Origin: a virus
Virus record (IMG/VR): IMGVR_UViG_3300042402_007915
Coordinates: 32,001-96,000 of that record
DNA length: 64,000 nt
Reading direction: 5' to 3' (one strand)
Shown: positions 19,284 to 37,500 of the stretch, piece by piece
Position numbering within the stretch: the first letter of the stretch is position 1
How the letters are laid out: the number at the start of each line of letters is the position of its first letter
Program-made: the position numbers and the translations under genes
Notes under the pieces: generated by a model
The model's input: only the letters and a program-made list of their open reading frames with translations
What the model was told of the DNA's origin: nothing
The model's database searches: none

Positions 19284-21584
19284 ATGAGTTTTTCATCTCT
19301 AGGCGGTGTAACCGCTGCTTACGTTGACGGGAGCCTCGCTCCTGCCCGTTCACCTGCTCAGAACCGTGTCCTCGTTATTGGTGCTGCACCTTCTGGTCCT
19401 AGCGACGAGATCTACGGTGTTGGTTCGATTAACCAAGCAGAGCAGGTTTTCGGTGTTGAATCTGAAGTGATGAAGAGGGTTTGGGAGCTCTTTACCGAGG
19501 GCGCAGATAACATTGGTATCTTGCGTTGCGGTGGGCGTCCTGGAGTTGCAGTTATCGAAGACGGAGCTAGCACGATCACCATTACTCCGGTCCTCCGGGG
19601 AGATGAGGTTTGGGATCGTTATGCTCTGATTTTTGAGCCTCTTGACGGTCAGAACCGCCTTGTCATTTGGGACATTGAGGGCGAGACCTTCGTTTACGAC
19701 TCTGCTGGTATCTTGACCGTAGATGATTCTCTGTTCGAGGTTGAAGGCCTTGAGGAGATGGAGAGCCTGCTTGAGCTTGGTAGCGTTGCTCTTCCGACTT
19801 CAGTAGCTGCTGCTGCTGACCTCAGTGGTACTCCGTTCGTTGATGGTTCGACCACTTTTGCTGCCGATGCTGGTACTGATGGTGTCGACGTCTCTCTCGT
19901 AGAGAAGTACGCCAGCCTTTCTAGCGGTTATCACGAGCTGTCCTACAAGGATGCTTCTGCGCTGATTCCTGTTGGCGTTGACTTTGATGCTGCAAACATC
20001 GTTGACGAGAGCCTGAGCTATGGCTTGTACTGGAAGGGCCTCCCCGTCCAGGGCGAAGCTAACGACAAGCTTGGCTATCTCTGGCAGTACGTCTACCGTG
20101 GCGGCGTTTACACTTACTTCACGGACAGCGATCAGTACTTTACTGACGTTCCTGACCTTGAGTTTGCTACTCGCGCCCACGAAGGCGTAACGATTTCAGC
20201 CCTTAAGGCTGGTGTTGGTGGTAATGCTTGCCGCTTTGTGATTACCGCAGGTACTCTTGGCACAACCATCACCGAGACCGACTTTGGTCTGGATATCGCA
20301 GTTACTGCTGTTACTTCTACCAGCACCTACAACGCTATCATCAGCAGCATCAATACTGCTCTTGCTGCGTTCACGCTTGCTAACGGAGTCGTAGCTTCTT
20401 CTCTTCTCGAGGCAAGTCTCACCTCTGGCTCGACCGGAACTGATACCCTGAGCGCTCTGCGTAGCATTGTGAACCTCACTGGCGGTGTTGGTGGGCATGT
20501 ACTCACCCACGAAGACCTCACCGGTGTAGCGGCTCCTGGAGCGGTAGAGGACAAGTTTGAGGACGGCTCAGACGCTCAGCTTCGTGAGTGCAACTTCGGT
20601 CATCAGCTTGCTACCGCTTGCCACCTTGCTTCTTCGTACTGGCAAGATTGCTTGGGTGCAATCTCCTTCTCGAAGCCAAGCGCTTTTGGTCGGCGTGTCA
20701 TCTCTGGTCACCTTGGAAACTCTCCTACCTATACCACGAATGGAAGAGAGCTTTACATCGACACCGCTTCTCAGAATGGTAGCGGAGTCCTTGGTAACAA
20801 GCTGCTTGCAGGTCTGTCGGCTTCGGGTAATGGATACCGTGCTCACTTGGTCACCGATGGCGGAACCAATGACTCTATCGCTTACGGTGGATTGATCCTC
20901 ACCAAGGGCCTTTCACTCCCGAACGAAGGTAAGTTCTCTTACGGTATCGATGACGGCGATGAGGCCCTCGACAGCAATAAGCGCCCAGTTGATATTGGCC
21001 GCCACATCTTCGTGAACGCAAGCTGGGGTAACTGCGTGTCTGGTTGGAACTCTGGTGCAAGATACAAGGCTCCGGCCCACGCTATCTTCATGGGAGCCCT
21101 GCTCAGGACGGCTGCCAACGTAGAGCTGATTGGTGAGAACGGTCTGCTTCGTACCCCCTTCGCACAGATGGATATTCACCCGACGACTCAGGACGAGCTT
21201 GCGGCTGGTCGTATCGTGTTCGTGAAGCCCATCGACGGTGGTACCGCGCCCACCTTTGGTGCCTGCAAGACTGCTGCTCTTCCAAGCTCGGACTACAGCA
21301 GAATGTCTACGATTCGTATCGTGAACCAGCACCTTGCTGATATTCGTCGGATTGCTCGCCCGTTCCTTGGAAGGCCGTTCACCAACGCCGAGCTTCTTTC
21401 TCTCCAGGCCAGCATCTCACAGTACTGCCGCGAGCAGCAGAACCGCGGGATGAACAACGGAGCAGCTGCTGTAATCAGTTACAGCAATGTTGACCGCACC
21501 GTTGGGACTCTCCGGGTTGGCCTCCGTATCCGTCCCACCTTCTCGATGGAAACCATTACGGTTTCTGTCAGCATCTCAGAGTAA
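19284..21584 (+). CDS. Contractile tail sheath protein
   Basis: 766 aa; N-terminal GGVTAAYVDG..RVLVIGAAPSGP..AEQVFG; C-terminal SDYSRMSTIRIV..ARPFLG..LRIRPTFSMETITVSV; high-expression codon usage. Confidence 0.93.
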   Translation: MSFSSLGGVTAAYVDGSLAPARSPAQNRVLVIGAAPSGPSDEIYGVGSINQAEQVFGVESEVMKRVWELFTEGADNIGILRCGGRPGVAVIEDGASTITITPVLRGDEVWDRYALIFEPLDGQNRLVIWDIEGETFVYDSAGILTVDDSLFEVEGLEEMESLLELGSVALPTSVAAAADLSGTPFVDGSTTFAADAGTDGVDVSLVEKYASLSSGYHELSYKDASALIPVGVDFDAANIVDESLSYGLYWKGLPVQGEANDKLGYLWQYVYRGGVYTYFTDSDQYFTDVPDLEFATRAHEGVTISALKAGVGGNACRFVITAGTLGTTITETDFGLDIAVTAVTSTSTYNAIISSINTALAAFTLANGVVASSLLEASLTSGSTGTDTLSALRSIVNLTGGVGGHVLTHEDLTGVAAPGAVEDKFEDGSDAQLRECNFGHQLATACHLASSYWQDCLGAISFSKPSAFGRRVISGHLGNSPTYTTNGRELYIDTASQNGSGVLGNKLLAGLSASGNGYRAHLVTDGGTNDSIAYGGLILTKGLSLPNEGKFSYGIDDGDEALDSNKRPVDIGRHIFVNASWGNCVSGWNSGARYKAPAHAIFMGALLRTAANVELIGENGLLRTPFAQMDIHPTTQDELAAGRIVFVKPIDGGTAPTFGACKTAALPSSDYSRMSTIRIVNQHLADIRRIARPFLGRPFTNAELLSLQASISQYCREQQNRGMNNGAAAVISYSNVDRTVGTLRVGLRIRPTFSMETITVSVSISE

Positions 21585-21596
21585 AAGGAGTAACTC

Positions 21597-22277
21597 ATGG
21601 CTACAAGTGCTCTTGAGCTTTCTAGAACCTACACATCCTATAGCGGCACTGATATCAAGGCCGTTATCAACGGACAGCCTCTGGCGACGCTTCAGGGCAT
21701 TTCTTACGCCGTGCAGCGCGAGAAGGCTCCGGTATACGTCATGGGCAGCAAAGACCCCCTTTCTTTCTCTCGTGGTAAGCGTGGCATCGCAGGCACCATC
21801 ATCGCGATGATGTTTGACGAGCACGCTCTCTACAAGGAGGCTGCGTTCAGGGATACGCAGGTCATCCTCGGGAAGGAAGAGATCTACGCCAACCCATCCA
21901 GCCTGAACTCGCTGACGACTGGCCCTTCCGGAGACCTTCTGGACCTGGGTTCTGTCGATCCGAGTTACGCCGGCCTAAACCCATCAGACCTGTCTGCCTC
22001 GTATCAGCCCTACAACCCATTCTACATGGACCAGCTGCCTCCGTTTGACATCGTTCTCGTTGCACAGAACGAGTACGGCAATGCTGCTACCATGAGAATC
22101 TATGGTGCTGAGATTCTGAACGAGGGCTCAGGCTTCTCAATCGACGACACCACCATCGAAAGCCAGATGACTTACGTTTGTAGGACCATCCTGCCTTGGC
22201 AGAAGCTTGGTAACTTCACCGTAAGCGGTTCTGGATTCAGCGGCGGCTTCACGACTTCGCCGGTTGGTCCTACCTAG
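21597..22277 (+). CDS. Major tail tube protein
   Basis: Follows sheath; YTSYSGTDIKA..LQGISYAVQREKAPVYVMG..SFSRGKRGIAG..IYGAEILNEGSGFSIDD; high-expression codons; followed by a terminator. Confidence 0.88.
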   Translation: MATSALELSRTYTSYSGTDIKAVINGQPLATLQGISYAVQREKAPVYVMGSKDPLSFSRGKRGIAGTIIAMMFDEHALYKEAAFRDTQVILGKEEIYANPSSLNSLTTGPSGDLLDLGSVDPSYAGLNPSDLSASYQPYNPFYMDQLPPFDIVLVAQNEYGNAATMRIYGAEILNEGSGFSIDDTTIESQMTYVCRTILPWQKLGNFTVSGSGFSGGFTTSPVGPT

Positions 22278-22302
22278 GCTGACAAAACAGTAACTAAATG
22301 AT

Positions 22303-22336
22303 ATACAGGGTGAGGCAACTCACCCTGTATTCTTTT
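22303..22336 (+). terminator. Rho-independent terminator after the tail tube gene
   Basis: ATACAGGGTGAG-GCAA-CTCACCCTGTAT: perfect 12-bp stem with a GNRA loop, followed by TCTTTT. Confidence 0.88.
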
Positions 22337-22348
22337 GTAGGAGAGAAA

Positions 22349-23071
22349 ATGCAGTATCGTTACTCGTATTCAGGTGCCGACTGTAAGGTTTATATCTGCC
22401 CGCACGGAGAGTACAGCAAGTTCATTGAACTAGAAAGTTTCAATACAATTTCGTACTCGATCCATGAGGCAAAGGGGCAGGCCAGAGCTTTAGGCTATAG
22501 AGGGGTAAAGGGCTTCTCTAGGGGCATTAGAACCATCGCCGGCTCTTTCATCCTCACGGTCATTGAAGACAACCCGTTCCGTCCGTTCTTAAAGCTCTTG
22601 CAAGAACCAGGAGAAAGCATCCCCGCTGTTGACAAGAGACAGTACGGCTACTCTGCTGATATGGGGCTGACAGGTACTGGGGCCTTTAATGATGATCTCG
22701 ACTTTAGCAACGCACTCCCAACCATCATGTACCCGTTCGATCTGCTATTGATCTATGCAACAGAGCGACCGTTTGAAGCAAGAACCGACACTATTTGGCG
22801 CGAAGATGAAACCTGGAGGCGAAAGACAGAAGATCGAGGGCTCGAGGCAGCATACGCTTCAAGCCTTATTGAGGCTATTGAGATTGTAGATAACGGTGTA
22901 GTTACTTCGATTAATGACTCGGTGACTGAAATGACGTGTTCATTTATGGCAAGAAACGTAATGCCAATGACGCTTGTCCTGCCAAGAAAAACAATCTTTT
23001 TGAACGACGATGAAAGGCCTCCTGTCCCTTTTCCAGCAGATTTGGGTAGCAGCACAGAGGAGTCTGACTAA
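22349..23071 (+). CDS. Tail tube paralog 2 (tube initiator-like)
   Basis: YSYSGADCKV..ISYSIHEAKG..GFSRGIRTIAGS..PFDLLL..SINDSVTE parallels the tube protein. ATG at 22349 with AGGAG SD. Confidence 0.78.
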   Translation: MQYRYSYSGADCKVYICPHGEYSKFIELESFNTISYSIHEAKGQARALGYRGVKGFSRGIRTIAGSFILTVIEDNPFRPFLKLLQEPGESIPAVDKRQYGYSADMGLTGTGAFNDDLDFSNALPTIMYPFDLLLIYATERPFEARTDTIWREDETWRRKTEDRGLEAAYASSLIEAIEIVDNGVVTSINDSVTEMTCSFMARNVMPMTLVLPRKTIFLNDDERPPVPFPADLGSSTEESD

Positions 23072-23670
23072 TGGAAAGACCACTTGGACAAAGATTCATT
23101 CCAGGTACTGCAGCGTACCCGTACGAGTATTTTTGCGGTGCCAATACTGTTCTTTACTTTAACGGTACCCCCGCCCTAGAGATTGCAGGGCTAAGCTTCA
23201 CCATCGTGGAAGGTAAGCGGCCACTCTATGGTTACTCCTCGAGGTTCTTTGATGGAGTCGCAAGAGGTAACGTAATCGTAGAAGGCTCACTACTTGTCAA
23301 TATGGTAGACAGTGCATATCTAGTAGGTCTCCTGGATGGAGTAGTACCAACGACTCCTCAGGGTAGAAGTGCCCTCGCAACGGGATTATCTCCAGATCTA
23401 AGCTGGGACGATTTGGAAGATACCCCAACAGTCGGAGTAAGAGACCTTGTGAGTTATAGAGGCAACCCCCATGATAGGGGTGTAGGTTTTTACATCAAAG
23501 TAGTTATGGGCGCGCAAGATGGAAGTGGCAATAGACTCCTTGGTAATTCAAGTGCTGGCTTTTCTCTAACTGGTCTTACCTTCACTGGACGTGGGAGTAG
23601 TATTCAGGTAGATGAGCAAGTCATAGTTGAACAGCACATGTTTTTGGCACGCAACTTTGTGCCAAACTAA
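23071..23670 (+). CDS. Tail tube paralog 3 (tube initiator-like)
   Basis: YFCGANT..LSFTIVEGKRPLYGY..ARGNVIVEGSL..IVEQHMFLARN is homologous to the two preceding genes. Confidence 0.78.
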   Translation: MERPLGQRFIPGTAAYPYEYFCGANTVLYFNGTPALEIAGLSFTIVEGKRPLYGYSSRFFDGVARGNVIVEGSLLVNMVDSAYLVGLLDGVVPTTPQGRSALATGLSPDLSWDDLEDTPTVGVRDLVSYRGNPHDRGVGFYIKVVMGAQDGSGNRLLGNSSAGFSLTGLTFTGRGSSIQVDEQVIVEQHMFLARNFVPN

Positions 23671-23680
23671 AGGATAAGTA

Positions 23681-24502
23681 ATGGCAAAGCTCTCTCCAGC
23701 GCAGATTGAACAGCTCAAGAAGCAGTCTGTAGACATGAATGCACTACTAACTGATGACGACTTCTTCGAGACCATTAACAAAGATATTTCGCAGACAGTG
23801 GCTGAACAGTGTGACCCAGAGGAAGTAAAGAAGGCTCACGAAGCGTTTGGCCTTCCTCTCCAGGCTCCAGTACCTCGGCCTACCCCACAGAAGACCATTC
23901 CCAGGAAGGAACAGACAATGAACAAGCGCCCAGTATCGGTTTCACCCGCCCCAGTTAGTCCCATCTCAAGCGAAGAGGAGAATCTTGAAGCAGAACTTGA
24001 GCGTCTCAAGGCTGCTCGTGTTGCCAAGGAGAGGGCCCTCGCAGAAGCACGGCAGAAGGAAGAGGAGGCCCGGCAGCCCGCAGCTGCCGAGGCGGAGGAG
24101 CCTCAGGAAGAGTTCCGGGACACAGTCCTCGGGCTGTTGACCAAGATCCCAGGTGCCCCAAACCCCAATCAGGTTGAAGCCCTGAAGAAGCAGTTCCAAG
24201 CGGTTTACGCCATTGCTTTCTCTGAGACCGAAGTGTTCCTGTTTACCTTCCTCCGTCGTTCGCAGTGGAATAAGATCCAGGAGATTATGCAGGAGAAGAG
24301 TCAGGCTATGACTCCTCAGCAGGCCGAGCGTGATCTTAGGGAGAAGGTAGTTCAGAACTGTATTGTTTGGCCAAACGTAAAGAGTGCCGAGTTTACGGCA
24401 TCGACTCCGGCCGGCATGATTGACACTCTGTTTGAGACAATCATGATCCACTCGTACTTCCTCACGACTCCTCAGGCAATGCAGCTGACCACCAAGCTCT
24501 AA
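23681..24502 (+). CDS. Tail assembly chaperone 1 (putative)
   Basis: Between tube genes and tape-measure-like genes; disordered/coiled N-half, then FLFTFLRRSQW..KVVQNCIVWP..PAGMIDTL. Confidence 0.6.
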   Translation: MAKLSPAQIEQLKKQSVDMNALLTDDDFFETINKDISQTVAEQCDPEEVKKAHEAFGLPLQAPVPRPTPQKTIPRKEQTMNKRPVSVSPAPVSPISSEEENLEAELERLKAARVAKERALAEARQKEEEARQPAAAEAEEPQEEFRDTVLGLLTKIPGAPNPNQVEALKKQFQAVYAIAFSETEVFLFTFLRRSQWNKIQEIMQEKSQAMTPQQAERDLREKVVQNCIVWPNVKSAEFTASTPAGMIDTLFETIMIHSYFLTTPQAMQLTTKL

Positions 24503-24511
24503 GGAAATACC

Positions 24512-25183
24512 ATGCTCGACATCAAGAAGATTGTCGAGAGTGAGGGACTGTATAGAACGAGCCTCCCTTTCGGAGGCTCGTTTACTTGGCGCCTCTTAAC
24601 TCTCAAAGAATACAACGCCTTCGCTTCCCTCAAGGACTCCGGTACCATTAACGACTATGAGTTCTACACAAAGGTGTTTGAGTACTGTTTTGTGGGGAAT
24701 CCTTTACTCATTGATGGAAGCATGCCAATGGGTATTATCTTCGGGATTGGACGGCTAATCATTGACCTGTCAGGACACAAAGACGCAGAGCAAGAGAAGG
24801 CTGAACTTGAGATTGCTCGCCAAAACTATCCCAGGAATACTCTGCTTGAGTACATGAAAAGAGTAATACTTAGAACGTTTTCAACGTATACTCCAGAAAT
24901 TATTGAGAATTGGACAAGGGAAAAAATCCTAGAAAGATTTGTCTTGGCAGAGTCTGTCTTGGCTGATGCTACGGGATACACCCCAATCTCAATGGACAAC
25001 ATTCTGTCTCCGCAAGAGGCGAAGAAGAAGGCAAAGAAGAAGGAGAAGATTGACTTCGAGAAGGAAAACAGAGCACTCGAAAAGTCTCTTGGTAAGAACG
25101 GACAGCACTTTGTTGAGAACACTCCAACTGATCCAGAGTATGAAAAGCGTCTTCGGATAGCGAAGGCGATGGGAGGTAGGTAG
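24512..25183 (+). CDS. Tail assembly chaperone 2 (putative, paralog of chaperone 1)
   Basis: FTWRLLTLKEY..KVFEYCFVGNP..PMGIIFGI parallels the preceding gene; has its own AAGGA SD. Confidence 0.6.
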   Translation: MLDIKKIVESEGLYRTSLPFGGSFTWRLLTLKEYNAFASLKDSGTINDYEFYTKVFEYCFVGNPLLIDGSMPMGIIFGIGRLIIDLSGHKDAEQEKAELEIARQNYPRNTLLEYMKRVILRTFSTYTPEIIENWTREKILERFVLAESVLADATGYTPISMDNILSPQEAKKKAKKKEKIDFEKENRALEKSLGKNGQHFVENTPTDPEYEKRLRIAKAMGGR

Positions 25184-28100
25184 TGGCATTTGAATCGTTT
25201 AGGGGCCCAGACATTTGGAGCAGTGAAGAGGCTCCGAACTCAAATGCAAACCTGTACAACTCGGGACAGTTCGCCGTTGCTGCAGCAGTAGCCGGTGGGG
25301 GTCTTTACGCTGGGTACAAGTTTAACAATAACTCGATGTACCCAATGATTGAAGGTGCGTCAGATAAGTTTAGACGTATTGGTAACCTGACCCCCTTTCA
25401 GCTTGCGAACACTTTCCGTATCCCTGAGTTTTTGTCTTTCTTTACGTCAGCCCAGTACAAGAATCGGGTCCTAAATCTAAGTGGCAACGCTTCTCCTGTT
25501 TCAGGAGTAATTGAGTGGGGTCGTGATGCTCTACAGAACGAAGACACTGCCGATTACATTTCTAGTATTACCGGGAGAAGTAGGAATGAGTTGGCGGCTC
25601 TTGGGTTCGAGCCCACTCGTATCAAGAATCTTGTTGGTGCTGACAACGCCAAACTGTCTTGGGAAGCAACCGGTGCAGGCAGAGGACGGCTCTCGTTTGT
25701 TCAGAGCCTAAGTGGTGTAGAAAGTCGGGCTCTTCTTTCTGAGGACATTGCTGTCGGTGCTTTCTCTCATGAGGTTAATGCTGCTGCTGGCGGGCACAAG
25801 GGAGAAGTAAACAAGCTAACCGAAGGAATGATGCGGGCGGCTGGCGTTGGGGAACGAACCGACGACTCCGTCAACAAGATCCTAAGAAGTTATACCGCCT
25901 CTGGAAGTACTGCACCCTCGTTTATGCCAGTACCGTCCATGTTGGGAAGGCTTGATAGCTTTGAGGACCTAGCACGACGCAGTACGATCCTTCGAGGTAT
26001 CTACTCGTTCTCTGCAAACCGCTTTAATGAGCTTATGGAAACGTTCGTCGACACTATGGGCGGCGACAAGACCAAAGAGTTCATGCGGAATGTTTTGGGT
26101 GTTAATCCTAAAGTCAAAGGCGGTACCGCAAGCTCTCTTATAGCTCGTTATGCGGGTAGAGCAGCAGCTTTTGGAGGAGCTGTTCTTGCCGTTGACCAGC
26201 TCGATTGGTTTAGGCGTCAGCACTCCTTCGGCCAAGTCTTTTCCTCTGGGGTAATGTCTGCAGGCTTTGCCTATGCCGCCCAAAAGATGGGCCATACTAG
26301 AGTCGCCAAGTATGGGGCCGCTGCTACTTTCTTGGGTCAGTTGATCCTTCCCGGTTTTGATGAAGGTGTTGTACCTGGAGTAGCAAGTAGTCTTGCGTCC
26401 TTGGACGTAATAAGAGGCTCGCCCCTTAACCCAATGACCCACTACAGAAGGGCGGTGGAAGGTCTGCTCCCCGGATTTACTGGGTTTGAGTTTACTGCGC
26501 TTACAGGTGCAGCTGCCCTTCTTGCAACTTCTATTCGGTCTCCAATTAGCGGACAGACCTTAGCGGAGAAAATCTTCTCAAAGTACGGAAACATTGTAGG
26601 TGTCGGACATGGAAATATCGACAACTACTATGGCGTAAACAAAGAAGCTCTCAGCCCAAGAGATATCTACTGGAACAAGGTGTCAGAAGCTGTTGACCAG
26701 AAGGTAGGCGCTCCTATTGGAATGGAAAGAAGGACGCTAAAAGAACGAGCTCTGTTATTTAACCGGTTCGAAAAGCTGTTTGGTGCGGACGCAGACTTTA
26801 CTGCCAACTCACTATTCCAAGCAGCAGAGACCGAACACAAAGAGTTGATGCGGAACTCTTTCACTACTTCTGGTGGCATTAACAACCGAATGGTTGAAGC
26901 CTTACGTGGAGTCGCAAGCAAATACCAAGGTCAAGGCTTGGGCAAGAAAGTAATGATGAACGTAGAAGGGTTTGGCGTTCAGTTACTGTATTCGGTGTTT
27001 GGCGCGGACGCTTCTTACAACAAGGACATTAGATCTGCGATCAAAGGTTTGGGTTTTAAGGGACCGGTTGGTTCGTTTGGTAAGCTCCTGACCGTTGCTG
27101 GTGCAGGTATGGCCGCCCATTCTATTCTCTCGGGTAACCTGCTTGGTTCATTAGCAGGCTCTGAAGAGCTGTCTAGAATCTATTCAGGTGAACAGTTAGT
27201 TGAGGTGAAGAGTTCTAGGGCCTGGGAAGCTGGTGGTACTCCTTTTGAGGGAGGTGAAACTTCTTACTTCAGACCACACCAGTTAGCGTTGATGAGGAGT
27301 AGGGCAAGAGAGAAGGCGGTTTGGGGTGAGAATGAAGACGAGATTTCGCCTCTGAAGAAGTTCTTCATTAAGAACTTCACTTATGACCTCGAGAGAATGA
27401 ATTACTACAGGCGGCCTTATCAGATGACAGGGTCTGCATTCCAAGACGTCCCTATTGTTGGTGATATCTTGGCAGGCTCTGTTGGGCAGTTAATCAAGCG
27501 CGCAAGGCCGATGCATTTGGGTGAGTGGGTTCGTGAGGGCGAGTCCGGTTTGGAGTACGCCTCTTTGTTCAAGGGGGCAAAGGCCGAGCCGGCTTATGCG
27601 CTTGGGGCGCCTAAGCCTGGCGCTCCTGTCAGTCCGTTTGCAGCCGGTGAAATTGCCAAGCAGATGGTGTACCAGTTTAGAGAAATTGAAGGTATGACGG
27701 GATGGGCCAAGAACATCATCCAGCAGACGCTCACGGGTTCAGCTCAATGGGAGAACCCGGCTCAGTCTATTGCAACCTCAAACGAGATGGACTCGACAAA
27801 GCGTAACTTCTGGGAGATGAACTTAGGAGGCGCACTCTTCAGCAACGAAATCATGCGCCGTATCCTTCCTCCAGACAGACAGGGGTTAGTAAAACAAAAC
27901 GCAATTCGTAACGACATGCCTTACTGGTTGCCAGATAAATTCCACTATGGCGATCCATTCACACAGGTTGAATGGGGAGACGCAAGACTTCCAGGTGCAG
28001 GTTACGAGGCACTACATCCAGAACTAAGGGGAATGGACCCTAACGACTACCCACTAATTGCAAGGTACGCAATCTTGGGAGACGTAGCACCTACTTCATA

Positions 28101-29280
28101 CGAGTTTAACAAAACCCAAAGAGAGGTTTATAAGAAACGGTACGAAGGTGGTTACAACAAAGAGCAAGAGGTACTGATTGATACTGTAGCGGCTAATGCA
28201 GCATCAGTAATCTCAAAGCTGGATTTCAGAAGGAATGACCCTAACGCGTATAACACGGCACTGACACCGATAACAGGCGGCCTCTTCCATTCTCTCCTCT
28301 CGGTAGCAAGAGAAGTAGCAGCACCTGCTGAGTACTTATTCCCAATGGGTTTCCGCCCAATGCAGAAACTTACTGGACAACTAAGAACCCCAATTGAAGA
28401 GTACGAACACAGAAGAATGTACGGAACAAATATGGCCTTCTGGGATAAGCCAATCCGAGACTGGTTCCGTCCTGCTGCTTACAGTGCTGCTCACCTTGCG
28501 GGCTTTGATGGGAAGCCTGGCTGGAGAACAGAAGCAGATGCGGCGTCTCAAAGATTCGACCAAATTGAATTTGTAAAGTGGATGCGTCTTGCACAGACAG
28601 CTAAAGAAAATGGTCTCAAGAATGAAGAGAACCAATACCTCTGGGCTGCTCAGCAGACCCGCGCAGGAGTAAACCCTCAAGGCTCCCCCCTTGCCATTTA
28701 CTGGGCTCTCCCTGCCGAGGACAGAGCCTTTATGGACGCGTTCGCAAGGGCTGCACCTACTGAGAGGGGACGTATCCTAGAAATGGTTCCTAAGGACCAG
28801 CAGCACCTCTACAAGGCCTTGTGGAGTCGACTCGACAGTGGAGATCCAACAGTCCAGTACCCGACAAGTGCCAAGGTAGACGGCTTAGCCTTAGCACAAA
28901 AAGCAGCAGTCCTCGAGCAACAAATAGCTATGCCCAAAGAAGACTGGATTGGCTGGAATCAAGAAGTGGATATTTCAGACATTAAAGTACGCTATGCTCA
29001 AAACCATGCACTTGATCTTCAAGACTATGGCATGTGGGACAAGCAGCTTAAAAAGTCTTATAACCAGTCCTTTCTTGATGGAGCTGAACTAGAAGTGCCT
29101 GTGCCAAGTGCAATCATGGCGCAAGAGATTCGAAACAGCCTTTCATCAATGGGGGGGCCGCTAAATTCGAACTATACAGTCAATACCACGTACGGTATGT
29201 CTAGGGCAAAGATTGCTGTTAACGATGACAGAGAAGGCGCTATTCAAAGGTTAAGAAGGGAGGCTAACTATGGGCTTTGA
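25183..29280 (+). CDS. Tape-measure-like giant tail protein
   Basis: 1365 aa; GTG start with GGAGG SD; canonical position after the chaperones; helical, Ala/Gly-rich, several hydrophobic segments. Confidence 0.65.
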   Translation: MAFESFRGPDIWSSEEAPNSNANLYNSGQFAVAAAVAGGGLYAGYKFNNNSMYPMIEGASDKFRRIGNLTPFQLANTFRIPEFLSFFTSAQYKNRVLNLSGNASPVSGVIEWGRDALQNEDTADYISSITGRSRNELAALGFEPTRIKNLVGADNAKLSWEATGAGRGRLSFVQSLSGVESRALLSEDIAVGAFSHEVNAAAGGHKGEVNKLTEGMMRAAGVGERTDDSVNKILRSYTASGSTAPSFMPVPSMLGRLDSFEDLARRSTILRGIYSFSANRFNELMETFVDTMGGDKTKEFMRNVLGVNPKVKGGTASSLIARYAGRAAAFGGAVLAVDQLDWFRRQHSFGQVFSSGVMSAGFAYAAQKMGHTRVAKYGAAATFLGQLILPGFDEGVVPGVASSLASLDVIRGSPLNPMTHYRRAVEGLLPGFTGFEFTALTGAAALLATSIRSPISGQTLAEKIFSKYGNIVGVGHGNIDNYYGVNKEALSPRDIYWNKVSEAVDQKVGAPIGMERRTLKERALLFNRFEKLFGADADFTANSLFQAAETEHKELMRNSFTTSGGINNRMVEALRGVASKYQGQGLGKKVMMNVEGFGVQLLYSVFGADASYNKDIRSAIKGLGFKGPVGSFGKLLTVAGAGMAAHSILSGNLLGSLAGSEELSRIYSGEQLVEVKSSRAWEAGGTPFEGGETSYFRPHQLALMRSRAREKAVWGENEDEISPLKKFFIKNFTYDLERMNYYRRPYQMTGSAFQDVPIVGDILAGSVGQLIKRARPMHLGEWVREGESGLEYASLFKGAKAEPAYALGAPKPGAPVSPFAAGEIAKQMVYQFREIEGMTGWAKNIIQQTLTGSAQWENPAQSIATSNEMDSTKRNFWEMNLGGALFSNEIMRRILPPDRQGLVKQNAIRNDMPYWLPDKFHYGDPFTQVEWGDARLPGAGYEALHPELRGMDPNDYPLIARYAILGDVAPTSYEFNKTQREVYKKRYEGGYNKEQEVLIDTVAANAASVISKLDFRRNDPNAYNTALTPITGGLFHSLLSVAREVAAPAEYLFPMGFRPMQKLTGQLRTPIEEYEHRRMYGTNMAFWDKPIRDWFRPAAYSAAHLAGFDGKPGWRTEADAASQRFDQIEFVKWMRLAQTAKENGLKNEENQYLWAAQQTRAGVNPQGSPLAIYWALPAEDRAFMDAFARAAPTERGRILEMVPKDQQHLYKALWSRLDSGDPTVQYPTSAKVDGLALAQKAAVLEQQIAMPKEDWIGWNQEVDISDIKVRYAQNHALDLQDYGMWDKQLKKSYNQSFLDGAELEVPVPSAIMAQEIRNSLSSMGGPLNSNYTVNTTYGMSRAKIAVNDDREGAIQRLRREANYGL

Positions 29281-32200
29281 TCCATTCACAAGAATGCAAG
29301 AGAAGAAGGAAAGGACTACAGACGGCTTTGCGGTCGCCGCTAGTCTTGCGCCTGCTGTGGGCGTGGCAAGCTATCTTTGGAAGCAGCAAGTGAAGAACGG
29401 CCCCATTAATCCTGTCTCCTCTCTAGGTCTGAAGAATGACACTTCTGACTTCGGTAGAGAACTTGGTAAGGCCCTAAAGCCAAAAGAAAAAAAGGAAGCA
29501 GCAATAAAGGCCTTCCTGGAAGGAGATGCTTTTGCCAAGGTAGTTAGTAAAGCCCAAGACAGAAGAGCCTTAATTCAGTCTGTACTGATTGGACTGGACG
29601 CTGATGAGCTTGGAGTCGACAAGGGAGCCCTTGCTGACCTAAAGGACAAACTTCTTAAAATCGGTGAATTGGACCAAGACGACCTTGCCGATGACCTGAT
29701 TCGTCCTCTCAGGGAGGTCATTGATACGCTTAACACCTCTGGTAACGATTCCATGAGGAGTAAAGTGGCCGAGAACTTCCAGGAGCTAAAAGCGTTCAAG
29801 AAGAAGATTGTTCCGGCCAAGCCTTTTGGCAGTCGTCCCTCTTCGACGAGTTTCAGGGTGCTGGATCAAAGCGCTCTAACTAACTTTGACACCTTCAGGA
29901 CTCAAGTTAGGTCTGCCGGTGCAAACGCAGGAGACGAAGAGCTTTCAAGAATCTTCAATGACCAAGTTGGAAGCATTAAACGGTTTATCGGTACGAATCT
30001 CGATAATGCTCAGCTAGTCGTTGTCGACGCTGCAGCTGGTGTTAAGTCACTAAACCTTAGAATCATGCAGGGTACTAAGGGGAACATGAGACCGGTTATG
30101 AACCTGCCAGTAGCGTTCAACCTCGGCAACACCGATGCGTCGATGCCTAACATCACAAGAATGGGGCGTGACTTTGCTACAGGGTACTTTGTTCCGCAAG
30201 GCGTTATCGACACAAGAGAAATCTTGCATCAGCTTAAGGAGGGAAAGATCACTCCGGGTAACGTAAAGGGTGTTCAGTCGAATATGAAAAGCTTCGGCAG
30301 CTATGCTCTTGGCTTACTAGAAGAACACTTTGAAATGACCCCGAGTGGAAGACTGAAGTCTCGACTTGGCACCACCAACAAAAAAGCACAGTCTGAAATG
30401 TTTGCAGTGCTAAATGCGAACATGGAGAACATGCCTAGGTCTCTGTCTGCGACTCTAGAATCGAATGAAGCTCAGGCCGAATACCAGTCTCATGTTAAAA
30501 AGCGTGCTGGTGCTAAACACAAGACTGTTTTGCTGACTCATGGTGAAGCTCTTACAGATGCTGACTTCAACTATGTGCATACTTCCTTGATTGGTGGAGA
30601 TTCTCCTTTTGACCCTGGTGTTGGTGCTTCTCGTTTGCAGAACATAATTGGTGGTCGCAAGTTTGGTTTGCTTCAGTTGTCGAGTCATTCTGTTCATAGT
30701 CGTTACAGATTGCCGTTTAAGGTGTCGCGTAAAGACGCGCCACTTATTGCTCGACAGGAGCAGGTAGAAGGTCGTATTGGTCAGTTCATTGCTCGAGGTG
30801 GAAAGGAAAACAATCCGACTATCAGAGGCGGACTGACTCTGGGAGAAGAGACAGCCTCTCCTATCCTTGAGGGAATGACGGGACACAAGAACGTACTTGT
30901 TGCAGTTGACGTCACAATGGGAAAAGGAAAGGGCGCTTATTCTGCGGCAGAAAATGAAGGTCAGTACTTTGTTCCAAAGAACAAAGGAGCAGGTCTTGGT
31001 GCCTACATCACAGAGAGCACAATCCCGCTACTCGACCCCGAAGAACACAAGCTTATGTCTTCAGAGCTACTCGAACAATTAAAGGCAGATTTCGAGGCAG
31101 GAAAGCCGCCGCGTTATTTCACGCTTGAAGAGATCGGCAAGCTTAACGGATATCTTGGTCACTCAACGCTTGGTAACAGGACTGTAAGGATTGATCCTCG
31201 TATGCTCGGCGCGTATATGGGTATTGCAGAGACAACAAGTGCTTCTGGAAAGAAGCAAATTCACCTGACATCTCGAGCTGTTAGAAAGGCTAGCGCAGGC
31301 AAAGTCTTCTCCACCTCGACAGTAAAAGGAACTTATAGAGCAACGAGAACTGCTTCTATCCGGCGAGATCTATCTACTTATGGTAGGACTAACTTGGTAG
31401 ACGGAAGACTTGTCAGAGAAGACGTATTCGACCGCATTCTCACTGACGTAAGTGGTGTAAAAAGCGGAGCCGGCCTAAACATCAAGGGTTCGTTTATCAC
31501 GGGCTCTGGAGACGTGCTGAAGAAGTCTGCTGCAAACAGGGCCAACTTCCTATTGACCTCCGCCGCTGTCTCTCTAGGTCAAAAGCACTCCAACCTCCTT
31601 CATGAAATGACTGGTAAAGTAAGCAGCTCGGAAGAACACTCCAGTTACCTGTTTAACAAGATTGCCACAGCTTTCGAAGCGGGACAAATCTCGGAAAGCC
31701 AAGCAGCCAATAGCTTATCTCTACCTTGGTGGGGAGGAGGCAGAGGAACAGGTAAAGGCGCTTACGCTCCGGAAATGAAGTCTATCGCAGATGAAATGCT
31801 TAAGCGTTCGCAAGAGACTACAGAGCAAGGAAAGAAGTGGGCTGCCCTGCTTGAGCTAACAGAAAAAGGACTTCAGGTAGGTGTGGATACTGTCACGCAG
31901 GGTACGGGACACGGAGATTACGGACTGGGTCGCGCATCTATTGAACCGAGAGCAATCGGGTTCATTCGCATGTCTCTCCAGGACATGGGTTTTGACAGCA
32001 AGCAGCAGGTTAACTTCATGCGAGAGATCCTCTCCAGAAAAGTAGGTGGAACCGCAACCCGTAGAACCCTTGAAGGCCTTACGACTGTAATGGCTTCGCA
32101 GATCTCTGCTCCAATTGATGGCGCAAGCAAGATGCCTTCATTCACGGTCAATCAGTTGCTCAAAGAGGCCAATACGCCTACCGAATTCAAAGAGTTAATG

Positions 32201-34573
32201 CGTAAAAACGAGAACGGCTTCTTTATCGATTTTAACAACGAGGAAGACCTCAATAGTTCAATCTTCAGAGAGGCAGCCCGCGAGAAGTACGGCAATGATA
32301 GACGCGTTTTCATTGCTGGAAAGCGTACTATTGAGAATATGAAGGGGACCGAGATCAAGCAGTCCAACCAGACAGTCAAGGTTGCCTCTGCGTACGAAGA
32401 GATGTCTTCCGAGTTCTTCTCGCAGATTAAGCAGCTTACGTCTAACTCTGACAATACAACCGTTGGCGATGTAATTAAGACGATGGACAGCTACAAACAG
32501 CAGACCACGCGTCTCTACACGTCGACTTTGCACCAGGTTACTCGTGGCAAGATCAAGGGCAATACTATGGGTATTGTCCACTTTACTGGTACTGAATACG
32601 ATATGGAGACAGCTACTGGAACCCAGAGAATGAAGATGGCTCTGAGTTCAACGCAGAGCGCCTATCAACGTGCCGCCGAAGAAGCCACCAAGAAACAAGT
32701 TGTATTTAGAGATACCCTTCAGTTCCTAAACAATCTTACGGACTACATGAACGTAACAAAAGACAAGGGTGAGCTTGGGGCCTCGCTTCGTAATTTTGCA
32801 TTGGAAAGTGCTCAGCTGCTTCGAGACAGTAAAGCTGGCGTTGCTACTACTGCTCAAGGTGAATGGGGCCTTATTGCTCGTGCCCCTGCTCTTGCTGCTG
32901 GTAACTTCAGGCTCATGGCCTCGTTTAGGTCTCCGCATGAAATGAACGAGAGCGTAGATCCCCTATTCCGAATGATTAAGGATTCAAAGTCAGCACGTAA
33001 AATACTTCACAAGTTTGAAGAAGACGCAGGCCTTGTGACTGTTACCGAGAAGAAAGTCACCAACAAGAAAGGCGAAGAAGTCGTCAAGCAAATCCGAAAG
33101 GGCACCCCAGTAGAAAGCTTTGATCAGCTACTTGACCTTGAGAAACAGCATCCTAACTTAGTTCGGACACTGTTTGAGGACTTCGCTGCAAACCTTAGAC
33201 AGTGGAATAGAGGTACCGGCGGCGGCTCTGTATTCATCGTCAAGGATATGGCGAACGCAAAGATTGACGGTAAAGTGAGGCCAGTGGATCTTGGTTTCGC
33301 TACTGGATCTCTTGCGGACGCAGACGGTGACTGGGCCTCTTTCATGACGCTGTCTAAAGAGCAGCGGAAAGTGATTGCAGCTAAGATGGCAGATCCAACT
33401 TCAGCTGCAGCGTATATTGCAGCACAGCAAGACCAAACTATTGCGTCAAGCGTATACGCAGAGTACGCAAAGAAAGGGCTTGTTTCGACTGGTGTCCTTA
33501 ACGAAACCTCAGATGAAATCCTGCGGAAGGACTTACTCAAGGAAAAGACTTCGGCTTCGGGCACCGGTAGCGTTGACGTTGCGTTGAACAAACTTCGTAA
33601 TGCAAGCCTTGCTTTCCAAACTGAAGACCCTCGTTTGCTTAGGGAAATGGTTCCGCTTTTTCAGATGCTGGAAGAGCACACTACGATTAAGTCTAAGAAG
33701 CTTGCAGACTTCAAGCCATGGGCAGAGCGTCTTTCCGCGTCTGTTGACGAAGCATTTCGTAGAGACAATATCGCTCCTTTTGCTAACTTCCTAAAGACAG
33801 AGATCTTTCCAGAAGCTGACATGAAGGAGCTTTACGCAGGCTTTGACGTTGAAGCAAGCGGGAGAACTACTCGCATTGAAGGTTTGGATGCAATCTTTGG
33901 TTACCTGCAAAAAGCCATCGTAAATGCCAAAGCGAATAAAATCGACCTTATGGCTACACCGAACATTGCAGCAACAACACTCGCTGGTGATGAAGTTGGT
34001 GTCGCAAGAGAATTGTTTGCCGCCATCACTTCAGGCAAAGCAACGATGCAAAGCGGTATGGCTGCTGAGTTCTTCGGAGACAGGGCTAACCAGAACTTAG
34101 CTAAAGCAGAAGTGCTGAGACAGGCCGCATCTAACCTGATGGACAAGATAGATGTTCGTGGTGCAGGGCTTGCTGTTGGGGCCCTTGCTTTGGGGGCTAT
34201 TACTGTAGGTGCTGTATCAGGCGGCGCCACCTCTTCTCCTCTCATGGTAGAAGGTGAGATGCCTGTTGCAGGGCTTAACAGAGCAGTTTCTGATGGTTTC
34301 CTAGAGGGAAGTGAAGCTCGTGGGATGAGTGGTGGGCCCATGTCAGACGTATATGACATGACAAACACTCCTCAAGGTCATGGTGTGACTTACATGTCAG
34401 GTGGGGCTGGGTTTGACATTAGAGGCGCGACCAGTTCCTTGGCCAACACTGAGACCAGTAGGGCTTTCATCAATTTAGTAACAAAAGGAAATGCTAGAGG
34501 TTCTGTTGTTATCAATGATACAAGAAGGCCTATTACGCCAAACTACTTGGATCGTCTTAACGGAGAATACTAA
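29270..34573 (+). CDS. Putative single-chain two-barrel (beta+beta'-like) virion RNA polymerase with tape-measure-like termini
   Basis: In order: GHKNVLVAV..ENEG (E563), GK678VFSTSTVK686GT, RGK1094, R1204APAL, AD1350AD1352GD1354 and a bridge-helix-like R1419KDLLKEKTSASG; GGAGG SD. Confidence 0.8.
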   Translation: MGFDPFTRMQEKKERTTDGFAVAASLAPAVGVASYLWKQQVKNGPINPVSSLGLKNDTSDFGRELGKALKPKEKKEAAIKAFLEGDAFAKVVSKAQDRRALIQSVLIGLDADELGVDKGALADLKDKLLKIGELDQDDLADDLIRPLREVIDTLNTSGNDSMRSKVAENFQELKAFKKKIVPAKPFGSRPSSTSFRVLDQSALTNFDTFRTQVRSAGANAGDEELSRIFNDQVGSIKRFIGTNLDNAQLVVVDAAAGVKSLNLRIMQGTKGNMRPVMNLPVAFNLGNTDASMPNITRMGRDFATGYFVPQGVIDTREILHQLKEGKITPGNVKGVQSNMKSFGSYALGLLEEHFEMTPSGRLKSRLGTTNKKAQSEMFAVLNANMENMPRSLSATLESNEAQAEYQSHVKKRAGAKHKTVLLTHGEALTDADFNYVHTSLIGGDSPFDPGVGASRLQNIIGGRKFGLLQLSSHSVHSRYRLPFKVSRKDAPLIARQEQVEGRIGQFIARGGKENNPTIRGGLTLGEETASPILEGMTGHKNVLVAVDVTMGKGKGAYSAAENEGQYFVPKNKGAGLGAYITESTIPLLDPEEHKLMSSELLEQLKADFEAGKPPRYFTLEEIGKLNGYLGHSTLGNRTVRIDPRMLGAYMGIAETTSASGKKQIHLTSRAVRKASAGKVFSTSTVKGTYRATRTASIRRDLSTYGRTNLVDGRLVREDVFDRILTDVSGVKSGAGLNIKGSFITGSGDVLKKSAANRANFLLTSAAVSLGQKHSNLLHEMTGKVSSSEEHSSYLFNKIATAFEAGQISESQAANSLSLPWWGGGRGTGKGAYAPEMKSIADEMLKRSQETTEQGKKWAALLELTEKGLQVGVDTVTQGTGHGDYGLGRASIEPRAIGFIRMSLQDMGFDSKQQVNFMREILSRKVGGTATRRTLEGLTTVMASQISAPIDGASKMPSFTVNQLLKEANTPTEFKELMRKNENGFFIDFNNEEDLNSSIFREAAREKYGNDRRVFIAGKRTIENMKGTEIKQSNQTVKVASAYEEMSSEFFSQIKQLTSNSDNTTVGDVIKTMDSYKQQTTRLYTSTLHQVTRGKIKGNTMGIVHFTGTEYDMETATGTQRMKMALSSTQSAYQRAAEEATKKQVVFRDTLQFLNNLTDYMNVTKDKGELGASLRNFALESAQLLRDSKAGVATTAQGEWGLIARAPALAAGNFRLMASFRSPHEMNESVDPLFRMIKDSKSARKILHKFEEDAGLVTVTEKKVTNKKGEEVVKQIRKGTPVESFDQLLDLEKQHPNLVRTLFEDFAANLRQWNRGTGGGSVFIVKDMANAKIDGKVRPVDLGFATGSLADADGDWASFMTLSKEQRKVIAAKMADPTSAAAYIAAQQDQTIASSVYAEYAKKGLVSTGVLNETSDEILRKDLLKEKTSASGTGSVDVALNKLRNASLAFQTEDPRLLREMVPLFQMLEEHTTIKSKKLADFKPWAERLSASVDEAFRRDNIAPFANFLKTEIFPEADMKELYAGFDVEASGRTTRIEGLDAIFGYLQKAIVNAKANKIDLMATPNIAATTLAGDEVGVARELFAAITSGKATMQSGMAAEFFGDRANQNLAKAEVLRQAASNLMDKIDVRGAGLAVGALALGAITVGAVSGGATSSPLMVEGEMPVAGLNRAVSDGFLEGSEARGMSGGPMSDVYDMTNTPQGHGVTYMSGGAGFDIRGATSSLANTETSRAFINLVTKGNARGSVVINDTRRPITPNYLDRLNGEY

Positions 34574-37500
34574 TGGCTCTCAGCCCCAACCAGCTCCCCT
34601 ACGTTGTTGATGTATTCACACCGGTAGGAGAAGAGGACCTTTACAGTCGCAAGGACGTCTTCATCATTAATGACATTGGCTTGATCATCCCGCCAATGGC
34701 TATCTCTATCCAGAAGGAAGATCTTTCCTACACCTGGAAAATGCTGCGTTCTGCTACTACTACCAAGCTCCCCACTGGGCATGGAGCTATTCGTATTGGT
34801 ATCACGATTCCTTTTTTGAACAATCACATCTTGGACTTTCACCGACTTCTTGTTCAGATTCGGCATAACCCTTTTGTTTATATCGAAAACAGGTATCTGA
34901 GAGAGTCAATCATTCCCGAAGCCCCAAGTTCACAGAACATGGCCTTTGGCGTGGACTCTGTTAACATTGCAAGCATGAACGGAACTGCTGACGCTTGGGT
35001 TCTGCAGCTAAACCTAAGTTGGTTTAACTACGCACCCTTTGGACCGAACTTCCTATTCAGGCGAGAGTGGGAAACAGTAGACGTAAATGAAATGAACTTT
35101 GCAAGCTCCTCAGACCCTAACGGGGAAGAGGTTCCGGTAATCGTTCGTAAGAGTATTGGGTGGCATCTCCCTGACGAGTACGGCAGGAGAACCCCGCGGC
35201 CCTGTATTACTTCAATGCGTTATCTTAGGGATGATAGCTTTGGTACAAGCGACTCTGAGACAGGAGAGTCAACTCCAGTAAACGACTTCGACACCACAAT
35301 CCCTAGTCCGATGACTTTGATTGATATGGAGTATGTTCACAAGGGTTTCGAGTGGGACTTGCTGCCTAAGATTTCAATGATGAGTAGGTCAGCGCCTTCT
35401 GTCTTCCCTGCTTCCTCAAGGATCTACACACGGTTCTATAACTACCTGCAGAGAGACGCACTAAAGGAAAACTTTGGCATTGACCTTGAGGGAATGCTTA
35501 GGGACCAAGGCGGCAATGTGGATGGCTACTTTGGTGTTTGGGATCCAACCAGAGCTGACCGTCTCGAAACGTGGTCTCTGCATAATGGTCCAAGAATGCT
35601 AGGGGCCTCAGAAGAGGAGCGCAAGCGCGAGATCGCTATATGGGCTTCTGTAATGTCATCCGTCCGAAGCGCCATGTTTGATATGAACGGACCTCTTGTG
35701 GTTGGCTTCCATTTGTACAAAGAAGTACGAATGCCAGCAGAGTGGGCCAAGGCTCTTGGCGATATGATTCGGGTAAAGAACACAGCGTCCCAGATGGCCT
35801 TGGATGAGAAGATCAACAACCCACTCAGCCCTGAACATCAGATGGATTCAATTACCTACCAAGACCCAAGTACTGGGAACTGGTACGTCATGGAGAAGAA
35901 GTACGAGGGTGGCCCTCTTAGTTGGAAGCCAAAGCTCTTCTCTCAGACTCCAGGGAACCTCCAGGGCCTTTCAACACCCATTGGCGTAGGCGGACGTAAG
36001 GCTACGTTTGCCGAGGTCTCAGCCGTCTCTGGACAGGGCATAGCGACTCGAAACTTTCCTGTTGCAGGTTCAGGCAGGACACTCAAGTCTGGTGAGCTTA
36101 GGGCACACTTGGGCTTGGACTTGTCTCCGCTGAGCAAGAGTGAAAGCACTTACGTCTATCCGGTTAAGGATGGCACCGTACTTAAAACCACTCAATACGA
36201 AGCTCTTAAGGGTACTTGGTATTGGACTTCAGATAGTGGAGTCACTGAGCCCGTTAGTGCTAAGCATTTAAGTCGTCTTAAAGTCGTGTTTAAGACTTAT
36301 AGCGGCTTCTTCTTTGGAGAGGGTGTAAGCCCTGAGTTGTACCTTCTTGGAATTGGTGACAACTTTGTTGGTGCCCAAAGTTACCTCGAGAAAGGAAGGG
36401 TTGGCTCGGTTTACCGCTGCGACTATGTTGGTACTGGGTGGGAAGAGTCTGGTTGGTTTTGGATTAACGGACCTTCTTCTGGTAACACAATTACCATTCA
36501 GCATGGAGATGGAAGCGTCTCTCGGTACATGCACCTTGAATCAATTACCAAGGGGCTGAGGGCCGGAGTGCCTGTTAGTGTTAACACCGTTATCGGTGTG
36601 ATGGGGCAAAGTGGAACCTATGCTTCTAACAAAGTTGCAGACTTCCTAACGACGAATGGCACAAGTGAGATTCGGTCTCTTGGGGCGGCAAACGAAAACT
36701 TAGCGTCTTTTGGGATTCATCTTCACCTTGAGTACGAAGAGCCTTTCAGGAACTCCCTCTGTGTTCCTTCAAGGGTCTTCACTTATGAAGGTGAAGTGGT
36801 TGATCCGGGCAAGACCCCTTCAACTGTTCTAGTTAACCTAAAGCAGATCTACAAGCATTTTGAAGATAGGCAGGCTGTTACTATTCCGGAGGACTACGTA
36901 GCTCCCGAGTACAAAGAATACATCGCGGAAGCGACGACAAAGGCCATCTTGTCTGAAGACTCAACAAAGCCTAAAACGCAGACAGAAGAAGAACAGCTTC
37001 AGTCCGTGGCCCAAGAGCTTGAGGACTTGGTGGAAGACGGATGGGCTAACTACGGCGGGTCTGGTGGTTTGGGTAACGTCTATGAAAAGGCGGTCTTCTT
37101 TAATTTCCGTACCGACCAAGCAAGTGCTATCAAGCTTCCGGAGAACCTAGTTTACACCTTCCAAGACACGTTCCTTACGGGTGTTAGTGCTTCTTACGGA
37201 GCCATTCTCTCAAGGATCCCTCTGCTTGGGCACGAGTACCCAACGCTTCAGCACCTAGGTTCAAACGAACCGTCTTATTCTTTTGAGTTTGCAGCTTTGG
37301 ATACCGAAGAGACTCTGGACGGAGTAAGCTCTGGAGTTAGAAACCTTGAGTCAATGAGGGCAAGGCTTCAGAAGAATGCGCGACTCTTTAGAGAGGTTCC
37401 CAATAGCTGGTCCTGTCTCATGGATACATTTCTCACTCGCCTAATGGGTAGCTACAAGGAGACAGACGTTGTCGTAGATAGTCCAGGAGAAGGACTGCCT

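Follow-up and report, generated by a model that had tools for sequence, protein, structure and literature searches.

A possible two-gene tape measure with an RNA polymerase as exchangeable cargo in phages with contractile tails

Introduction

Bases 32001-96000 of the single-contig, 147-kb phage genome IMGVR_UViG_3300042402_007915 (the window, i.e., the whole stretch of 64,000 nucleotides that was analysed) encode a terminase, a capsid protein, a tail sheath, three tube-like proteins, two small proteins, two giant proteins here called A and B, a baseplate hub and a baseplate J protein. This analysis concerns A and B, which were compared across 156 related loci and then 31 more. B is predicted by fold and motifs to be an RNA polymerase (RNAP), and it ends in a short tip that it shares with A. 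A preliminary description of the window, made from the letters alone, had placed the polymerase in a duplicated tape-measure scaffold that is docked at both ends of the tail, stored unfolded in the tail tube and refolded after injection. The coordinates and sequences that it quoted for A, B and the hub are correct.

The locus

The genes of the locus and their immediate neighbours are as follows.

25183..29280, plus strand: gene A, 1365 aa, GTG start, homologue of 0305phi8-36 gp145 (tblastn to gp145, ME3_35 and others)
29270..34573, plus strand: gene B, 1767 aa, in the gp146 slot, with an N-terminal region, an RNAP core and a C-terminal anchor module (synteny, conservation, model, structural matches)
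23681..24502, plus strand: tail assembly chaperone 1, gp143 counterpart (paralogy with chaperone 2; synteny; PMC2147016)
24512..25183, plus strand: tail assembly chaperone 2, gp144 counterpart (paralogy with chaperone 1; synteny)
34573..43479, plus strand: baseplate hub, gp147 counterpart, with an M23 peptidase domain, the presumed docking partner of the tips (Pfam M23; PHROG matches; synteny)
21597..23670, plus strand: three tail-tube-like genes, counterparts of 0305phi8-36 gp140-142 (each matches phrog_9206; synteny with annotated tube genes)
19284..21584, plus strand: tail sheath protein, as in a contractile tail (PHROG tail-sheath families, best E 4e-32)

The reading frames of A and B overlap by 11 nt. 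The two small genes upstream are paralogues, as the preliminary description had it (hhalign probability 98.8, E 7e-17), a relationship previously described for gp143/144 of 0305phi8-36 (PMC2147016). The order chaperones-A-B-hub is found in 5/5 annotated regions inspected, and the position of A and B between the tail chaperones and the hub is constant across all loci examined. No tape-measure candidate besides A and B was found between tube and hub. Assignment of the locus as the tape-measure slot of a contractile tail, following a G/GT-like chaperone pair, is supported.

Gene B as a predicted RNA polymerase

The polymerase region of B and its motifs map as follows.

30977..34069, plus strand: RNAP core, aa 570-1600 (conservation in 82 sequences; AF2 model; structural matches)
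31301-31333, plus strand: K678/K686 of the core (conservation)
32879-32887, plus strand: R1204-x-P of the core (conservation)
33317-33331, plus strand: DADGD of the core (conservation)

The catalytic residues are 91-99% conserved in 82 non-redundant B sequences (K678 98%, K686 91%, R1204 95%, P1206 96%, D1350/1352/1354 96/99/99%). A DxDxD metal loop preceded by R-x-P lies in the second barrel, and the first barrel carries two conserved lysines whose role is assigned from motif order. The AlphaFold2 (AF2) model of residues 570-1600 has a pLDDT of 88 and a pTM of 0.87, and its 14 best structural matches by VIA are all two-barrel RNAPs at moderate Z scores (7.0-9.3), including QDE-1 (Z 8.9 over 312 residues that extend across the entire model) and P74-26 gp62 (Z 8.0 over 284). 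These matches come from VIA; Foldseek returned RNAP rows only weakly. By fold and motifs B is thus predicted to be a single-chain two-barrel RNA polymerase, in agreement with the preliminary description. The family comprises 466 clusters at 50% identity and is unannotated in Pfam, PHROG and PDB. The B proteins of L017, L022 and L024 are enlarged by 600-1100 residues inserted at a single position, after R-x-P and before the aspartate loop.

Cultured phages also have DxDxD in slot B, namely in ME3 gp36 (L002:17328-22139), WH1 gp95 (L160:17377-24924) and KLEB27-3 gp34 (L161:17100-24404), which are annotated as hypothetical or structural proteins. ME3 gp36 matches the B profile with E 1e-9, and the two Bacillus proteins, WH1 gp95 and KLEB27-3 gp34, match by motif order only. 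Judged by sequence, all three are probably unrecognised polymerases. No description of a polymerase in slot B was found in the literature outside most subscription journals, and the supplements of PMC10770324 do not mention ME3, WH1, KLEB27-3 or 0305phi8-36.

A C-terminal tip common to A and B

The terminal segments that A and B may share are as follows.

29200..29268, plus strand: C-terminal strand-D-x-R-helix of A, the shared signature (terminal profiles, motif counts, AF2 model)
25261..25317, plus strand: N-terminal Gly/Ala-rich hydrophobic segment of A, a weak shared signature (profile comparison, hydropathy)
29324..29380, plus strand: N-terminal hydrophobic segment of B (hydropathy)

The likeness of the two C-termini noted in the preliminary description holds across the families. 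The motif hydrophobic-x-hydrophobic-x-D-x-R, ending 8-22 aa before the stop, is present in 52/93 A and 57/82 B proteins as opposed to 3/1082 other open reading frames (ORFs) of the same loci. Of the 143 B representatives collected by a separate search, 107 carry it. Because the pattern was derived from the A and B families themselves, these counts are descriptive and the contrast with the other ORFs is the actual test. In both families D-x-R lies at a matching distance of 13-16 aa from the stop. Profiles of the last 70 residues align by hhalign with a score of 22.2, against a maximum of 9.6 in 100 column shuffles and 6.8 for the reversed profile; the alignment spans only 22-24 columns, comprising the strand, D-x-R and the helix (E 2e-4 to 7e-4). 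Among 8687 control windows the A C-terminal profile gives B C-termini the top rank, and with the B profile only fragments of B itself rank ahead of A C-termini. Within the 147-kb genome the best non-self match of the B-terminal profiles is A, weakly (E 0.03 and 0.37), and the terminal-profile search found the signature at significance in no other protein of that genome. The terminal profiles have no matches in PHROG or PDB.

The N-termini were also said to begin alike, which stands only in part. Their profiles score 15.9 against a shuffle maximum of 7.2, but 9.9 when reversed, and the likeness is mainly that of a Gly/Ala-rich, mildly hydrophobic helix and partly compositional. Segments resembling this signature also occur in the interior of A and close to the C-terminus of B. 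In the B proteins of the Bacillus phages it is missing. The interiors of A and B show no detectable homology by BLASTP or full-length profile comparison, as had been judged by eye; the best BLASTP hit (E 0.007) is an interior patch to which the profiles give no support.

Since the profile match is limited to the ends, a full duplicated scaffold is not supported, whereas a short C-terminal tip common to A and B is well supported by the sequence comparisons. Prediction of a complex of three A tips and three B tips gave a score of 0.15 (mark, 0.32) and is counted neither way. Co-variation of the post-motif overhang in A and B (rho 0.38, p 7e-4) and correlation of their lengths (rho 0.52) are both confounded by kinship and were not used. 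In ME3 (L002) and its relative L063, A and B both seem to stop right after the terminal strand with no last helix; the two belong to one clade and are not independent.

The anchor module of B and the loss of its cargo

34067..34570, plus strand: C-terminal module of B, ~170 aa, with a hydrophobic helix (34160-34216), a Pro/Gly linker and strand-helix-strand-D-x-R-helix, the signature lying at 34493-34570 (kept upon RNAP loss)

DxDxD is present in 69/75 slot-B genes placed on the A tree (67 by scripted pattern, with L040 and L043 added on inspection of the alignment). On this tree, loss or replacement of the polymerase occurred on at least three separate occasions, and every time the C-terminal module persisted. 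The genes without a polymerase are those of L044, L061/L066/L069/L173, 0305phi8-36 (gp146) and MTATph1. In L044, B is reduced to the module, a gene of 193 aa with its own Shine-Dalgarno site beside an A of normal length in a genome with a capsid gene, and is 44% identical to the C-terminus of a polymerase-bearing relative. L044 and L049 are identical over the locus and are therefore a single lineage; both contigs are incomplete and a polymerase may lie elsewhere in that genome. DEDDh exonuclease domains are found as replacement cargo in L066 and MTATph1. The gp146 protein of 0305phi8-36 carries the B module (E 1e-11) without DxDxD, and only its ~140 terminal residues are common to WH1 gp95. 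In the Moorella phage MTATph1 (L003:18288-25644) the slot-B gene is apparently broken by a transposase and a neighbouring gene, the exonuclease domain lying in the front part and the module forming a separate 313-aa ORF.

With most inteins removed, B varies from 193 to 3222 aa (coefficient of variation, CV, 0.25) and A from 1231 to 2025 aa (CV 0.12), so that not every B is long enough to span the tube. This range and the 22-24 matching terminal columns do not bear out a polymerase housed in a duplicated scaffold docked at both ends. The retention of the ~170-aa module in polymerase-less relatives is a new observation. Because these relatives keep the module, in one case as a stand-alone gene of 193 aa, B behaves as exchangeable cargo on a conserved anchor and not as a universal ruler. 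Only ~170 aa follow the core, in place of the long length-setting tape region to which the RNAP is fused in P23-45. The ESM Atlas holds no match above 0.8 to A or to the B anchor, and no A-B fusion was found among the longer homologues (weak evidence).

Gene A as a proposed tape-measure and channel protein

By tblastn the homologues of A include 0305phi8-36 gp145 and proteins from ME3, MTATph1, WH1, Edson and KLEB27-3. The AF2 model of residues 170-1365 is compact and mostly helical (pLDDT 87, pTM 0.83), with hydrophobic helices at aa 325-460 and 630-660, a conserved helical globular part at aa 663-1300 and a terminal helix-strand-strand-helix. Family-average hydropathy peaks near aa 348, 374, 437 and 637, modestly (0.9-1.4). 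A thus combines the slot after the chaperones and before the hub with a mostly helical chain that has membrane-compatible hydrophobic segments, and we propose from the model that it is the core tape-measure/channel protein. A fold search in PDB returned generic helical matches only (best Z 6.9 over about 55 residues), and the tape-labelled rows in BFVD are weak (E 0.02 or worse) and appear to be members of A's own family.

The A protein of L080 has gained an N-terminal nuclease domain. The same domain family, that of staphylococcal nuclease, occurs in a 564-aa protein encoded at window positions 48-1742, upstream of the terminase. A is also a hot spot for inteins, which lie at about eight different conserved-motif sites and number up to three per protein (L030, L050, L055, L075, L078, L081, L146, P0011 and P0021); the same pattern found no inteins in B polymerases. 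The A gene of KLEB27-3 (L161:9923-17076) is split around a small ORF resembling a homing endonuclease, probably by an intron. One relative has an extra ORF between A and B, ClpB-like by eye (L074:12751-13821), and another has one between B and the hub, GIY-YIG-like by eye (L016:7350-8087).

A second polymerase candidate

The early arm of the genome encodes a second polymerase candidate of 1407 aa (genome 18831-23054, minus strand; L162:6831-11054) with the motifs DGSG, RFP and DDDGD. It has a homologue in the L004 genome (E 9e-150) and no match in Pfam or PDB. Seven elements consisting of a hairpin, a T-tract and CTATGG (genome 24279-28827, minus strand) lie upstream of this gene and point toward it; they may be terminators or phage promoters.

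Virion data and packing

Both gp145 and gp146 of 0305phi8-36 are virion proteins by mass spectrometry (GenBank notes), although this evidence comes from a relative whose B is without the polymerase motif and the data seen do not separate head from tail. In myophage tapes six strands fill the lumen, with their C-termini in two sets of three, one of which corks the hub (PMC13338283, PMC11972413). By simple arithmetic with an assumed rise and residue volume, and with A as the determinant of length, three copies of A and three of B would amount to 43-49 residues per nm. This is close to the value of about 43 for P7-1 and below the packing limit, which is about 80. The fit of a 3+3 load in the lumen at known packing density is supported.

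A two-component tail and its alternatives

We favour, at roughly even chances, a two-component tail in which A is the constant tape and channel partner and B a passenger made of cargo and anchor, with paralogous C-terminal tips and both chains extended in the tube. The tail location, the hetero-oligomer with its 3+3 stoichiometry, hub docking, refolding and activity are what we infer from the data above. The chaperones would hold the chains extended during tube assembly, and A and B would be loaded together with their tips docked at the hub, the last ~170 aa of B docking like the tip of A. Contraction would then eject both together, C-terminus first. A would probably fold only after ejection and help to open a path through the membrane, while the polymerase, extended in the lumen, would be pushed out ahead of the DNA, refold and transcribe the first genes, probably including that of the second polymerase in the early arm. 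Such a pair could plausibly have arisen when the C-termini of a tape measure, which form two non-equivalent sets of three at a three-fold hub, became specialised. The broader version of this proposal falls somewhat short of even odds. It holds that a widespread myophage family has a hetero-oligomeric tape composed of a constant ruler/channel protein and an exchangeable carrier, the two having paralogous hub-docking tips, and that the ~170-aa C-terminal module of the carrier brings enzymes (RNA polymerase, exonuclease), up to about 3000 residues long, in unfolded form into the lumen of a contractile tail for injection.

Several observations weigh against a two-component tail. When full-length A and B profiles are compared, only the last 22 columns match, and not significantly (E 0.2, still the top match). 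The resemblance between the two families also fades with divergence: in a held-out set of more distant sequences a faint cross-family signal remains at either end (above 8 bits in 0-7 of 26-30, versus 0-1 reversed). Some A proteins are without the terminal helix while their B retains it (L040, L043). Searches of Pfam, PHROG and PDB gave no tape-measure family and no solved tape structure that matches A, whose sequence is more conserved than is usual for tapes. The transmembrane-like hydrophobic helix just C-terminal to the polymerase in B poses a topology problem. Finally, comparison of tail and protein length, a check suggested in the preliminary description, has a single measured tail to go by, the 486-nm tail of 0305phi8-36 (PMC1817643), which fits gp146 at 0.19 nm/aa better than gp145 at 0.25 nm/aa, a value higher than usual; for ME3, WH1, KLEB27-3, Edson and MTATph1 a search found no tail lengths. 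The ruler may therefore be A or B, and may differ between lineages.

The tail length speaks for B alone as the tape measure, with polymerase and tape fused as they are in P23-45, and with A a separate tail-tip or baseplate protein outside the tube that shares a hub-binding tip. It was mainly tail length that led to the assignment of gp146 as tape measure in PMC2147016; gp146, WH1 gp95 and KLEB27-3 gp34 are moreover alike in length (2434-2537 aa) even though gp146 shares only the ~140 C-terminal aa, and the model of A is a confident compact fold. However, the diverged 193-aa B of L044, in a genome with a capsid gene and a normal A, would give a tail of about 30 nm, the lengths of B scatter more widely than those of A, and it is A, not B, that lies next to the chaperones. 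We regard a B-only tape as doubtful.

Phage virion RNAPs are usually stored in the head. A and B could both be ejection proteins kept unfolded there, like the virion polymerases of N4, phiKZ and crAss, with their termini serving as signals for packaging or ejection order; the ejection proteins of SPN3US provide a precedent for head storage (PMC5694885). The acceptance of nuclease cargo by both families and the virion data for gp146, which leave head and tail unseparated, agree with this route, but it is unlikely given the invariable location between tail chaperones and hub, the lack of another tape-measure candidate between tube and hub, and a signature that reaches significance in no other protein of the genome. 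Less likely still is convergence of the termini on a generic strand-helix end and a hydrophobic start, which would imply no joint structure and perhaps only a loose association of B with the virion. Convergence is favoured by the shortness of the match, the lack of interior homology, the partly compositional N-terminal signal and the weak held-out signal. Against it stand the placement of D-x-R, which in A and B alike lies 13-16 aa before the stop and is matched by hardly any other ORF, and the retention of the anchor after cargo loss.

If the two-component tail is correct, a two-gene tape with a swappable cargo chain, unlike the homo-oligomeric tapes of T4, P7-1 and phiTE, would show how a 190-kDa enzyme can be delivered through a contractile tail. 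It would also define a short natural loading module and revise the tape-measure assignment in 0305phi8-36. The cultured relatives ME3, WH1 and KLEB27-3 make the two-gene tape directly testable.

Comparison with known systems

In the Thermus phage P23-45, gp96 is a virion RNAP fused to the tape measure and gp64 is a non-virion RNAP (PMC10770324; PDB 8h2m, 8h2n), a two-polymerase plan that is paralleled here by B and the early-arm candidate. Like B, gp96 has in the tape-measure region a single-chain two-barrel RNAP with DxDGD, behind which come a hydrophobic segment and a C-terminal tail part; gp96 matches the B model with Z 6.5 and an rmsd of 4.4 A over 279 residues, with no sequence similarity detected between B and the P23-45 protein. 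The tail of P23-45 is non-contractile and has one tape of 5002 aa with the RNAP as its N-terminal quarter. Here, in contrast, the tail is contractile, the RNAP makes up most of B with ~170 aa behind it, and a second giant gene has the same tip.

The closest described locus is gp143-gp147 of 0305phi8-36 (PMC2147016), which has the same gene order and paralogous chaperones, a gp145 that corresponds to A, a gp146 with the B C-terminal module, and both giants in the virion. It differs in that gp146 is without DxDxD; that paper recognised no polymerase in the slot, and its available part makes no mention of a tip shared by gp145 and gp146 or of a role for gp145.

The tapes of T4 (gp29), P7-1 (gp82) and phiTE run through the lumen as six strands, whose C-termini adopt two states at a three-fold hub (10.64898/2026.03.06.709160, PMC13338283, PMC11972413). 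In the T4 tape a transmembrane segment is combined with a helical domain predicted to be globular and with a hub-bound C-terminal loop in two conformations (10.64898/2026.03.06.709160). The arrangement that we propose for A is that of these tapes, a hydrophobic segment together with a helical domain whose folding follows ejection, and by this analogy A resembles the T4 tape in outline. However, they are homo-oligomers of one gene product and have no sequence or fold match to A.

The effectors Sle1 and Tme of actinobacterial contractile injection systems (PMC13277306) are similar in layout, with a tape-like scaffold and variable cargo, for which adaptation to the lumen and folding after ejection have been proposed. 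They belong to bacterial DNA-free machines, and their cargo is C-terminal whereas that of B is N-terminal.

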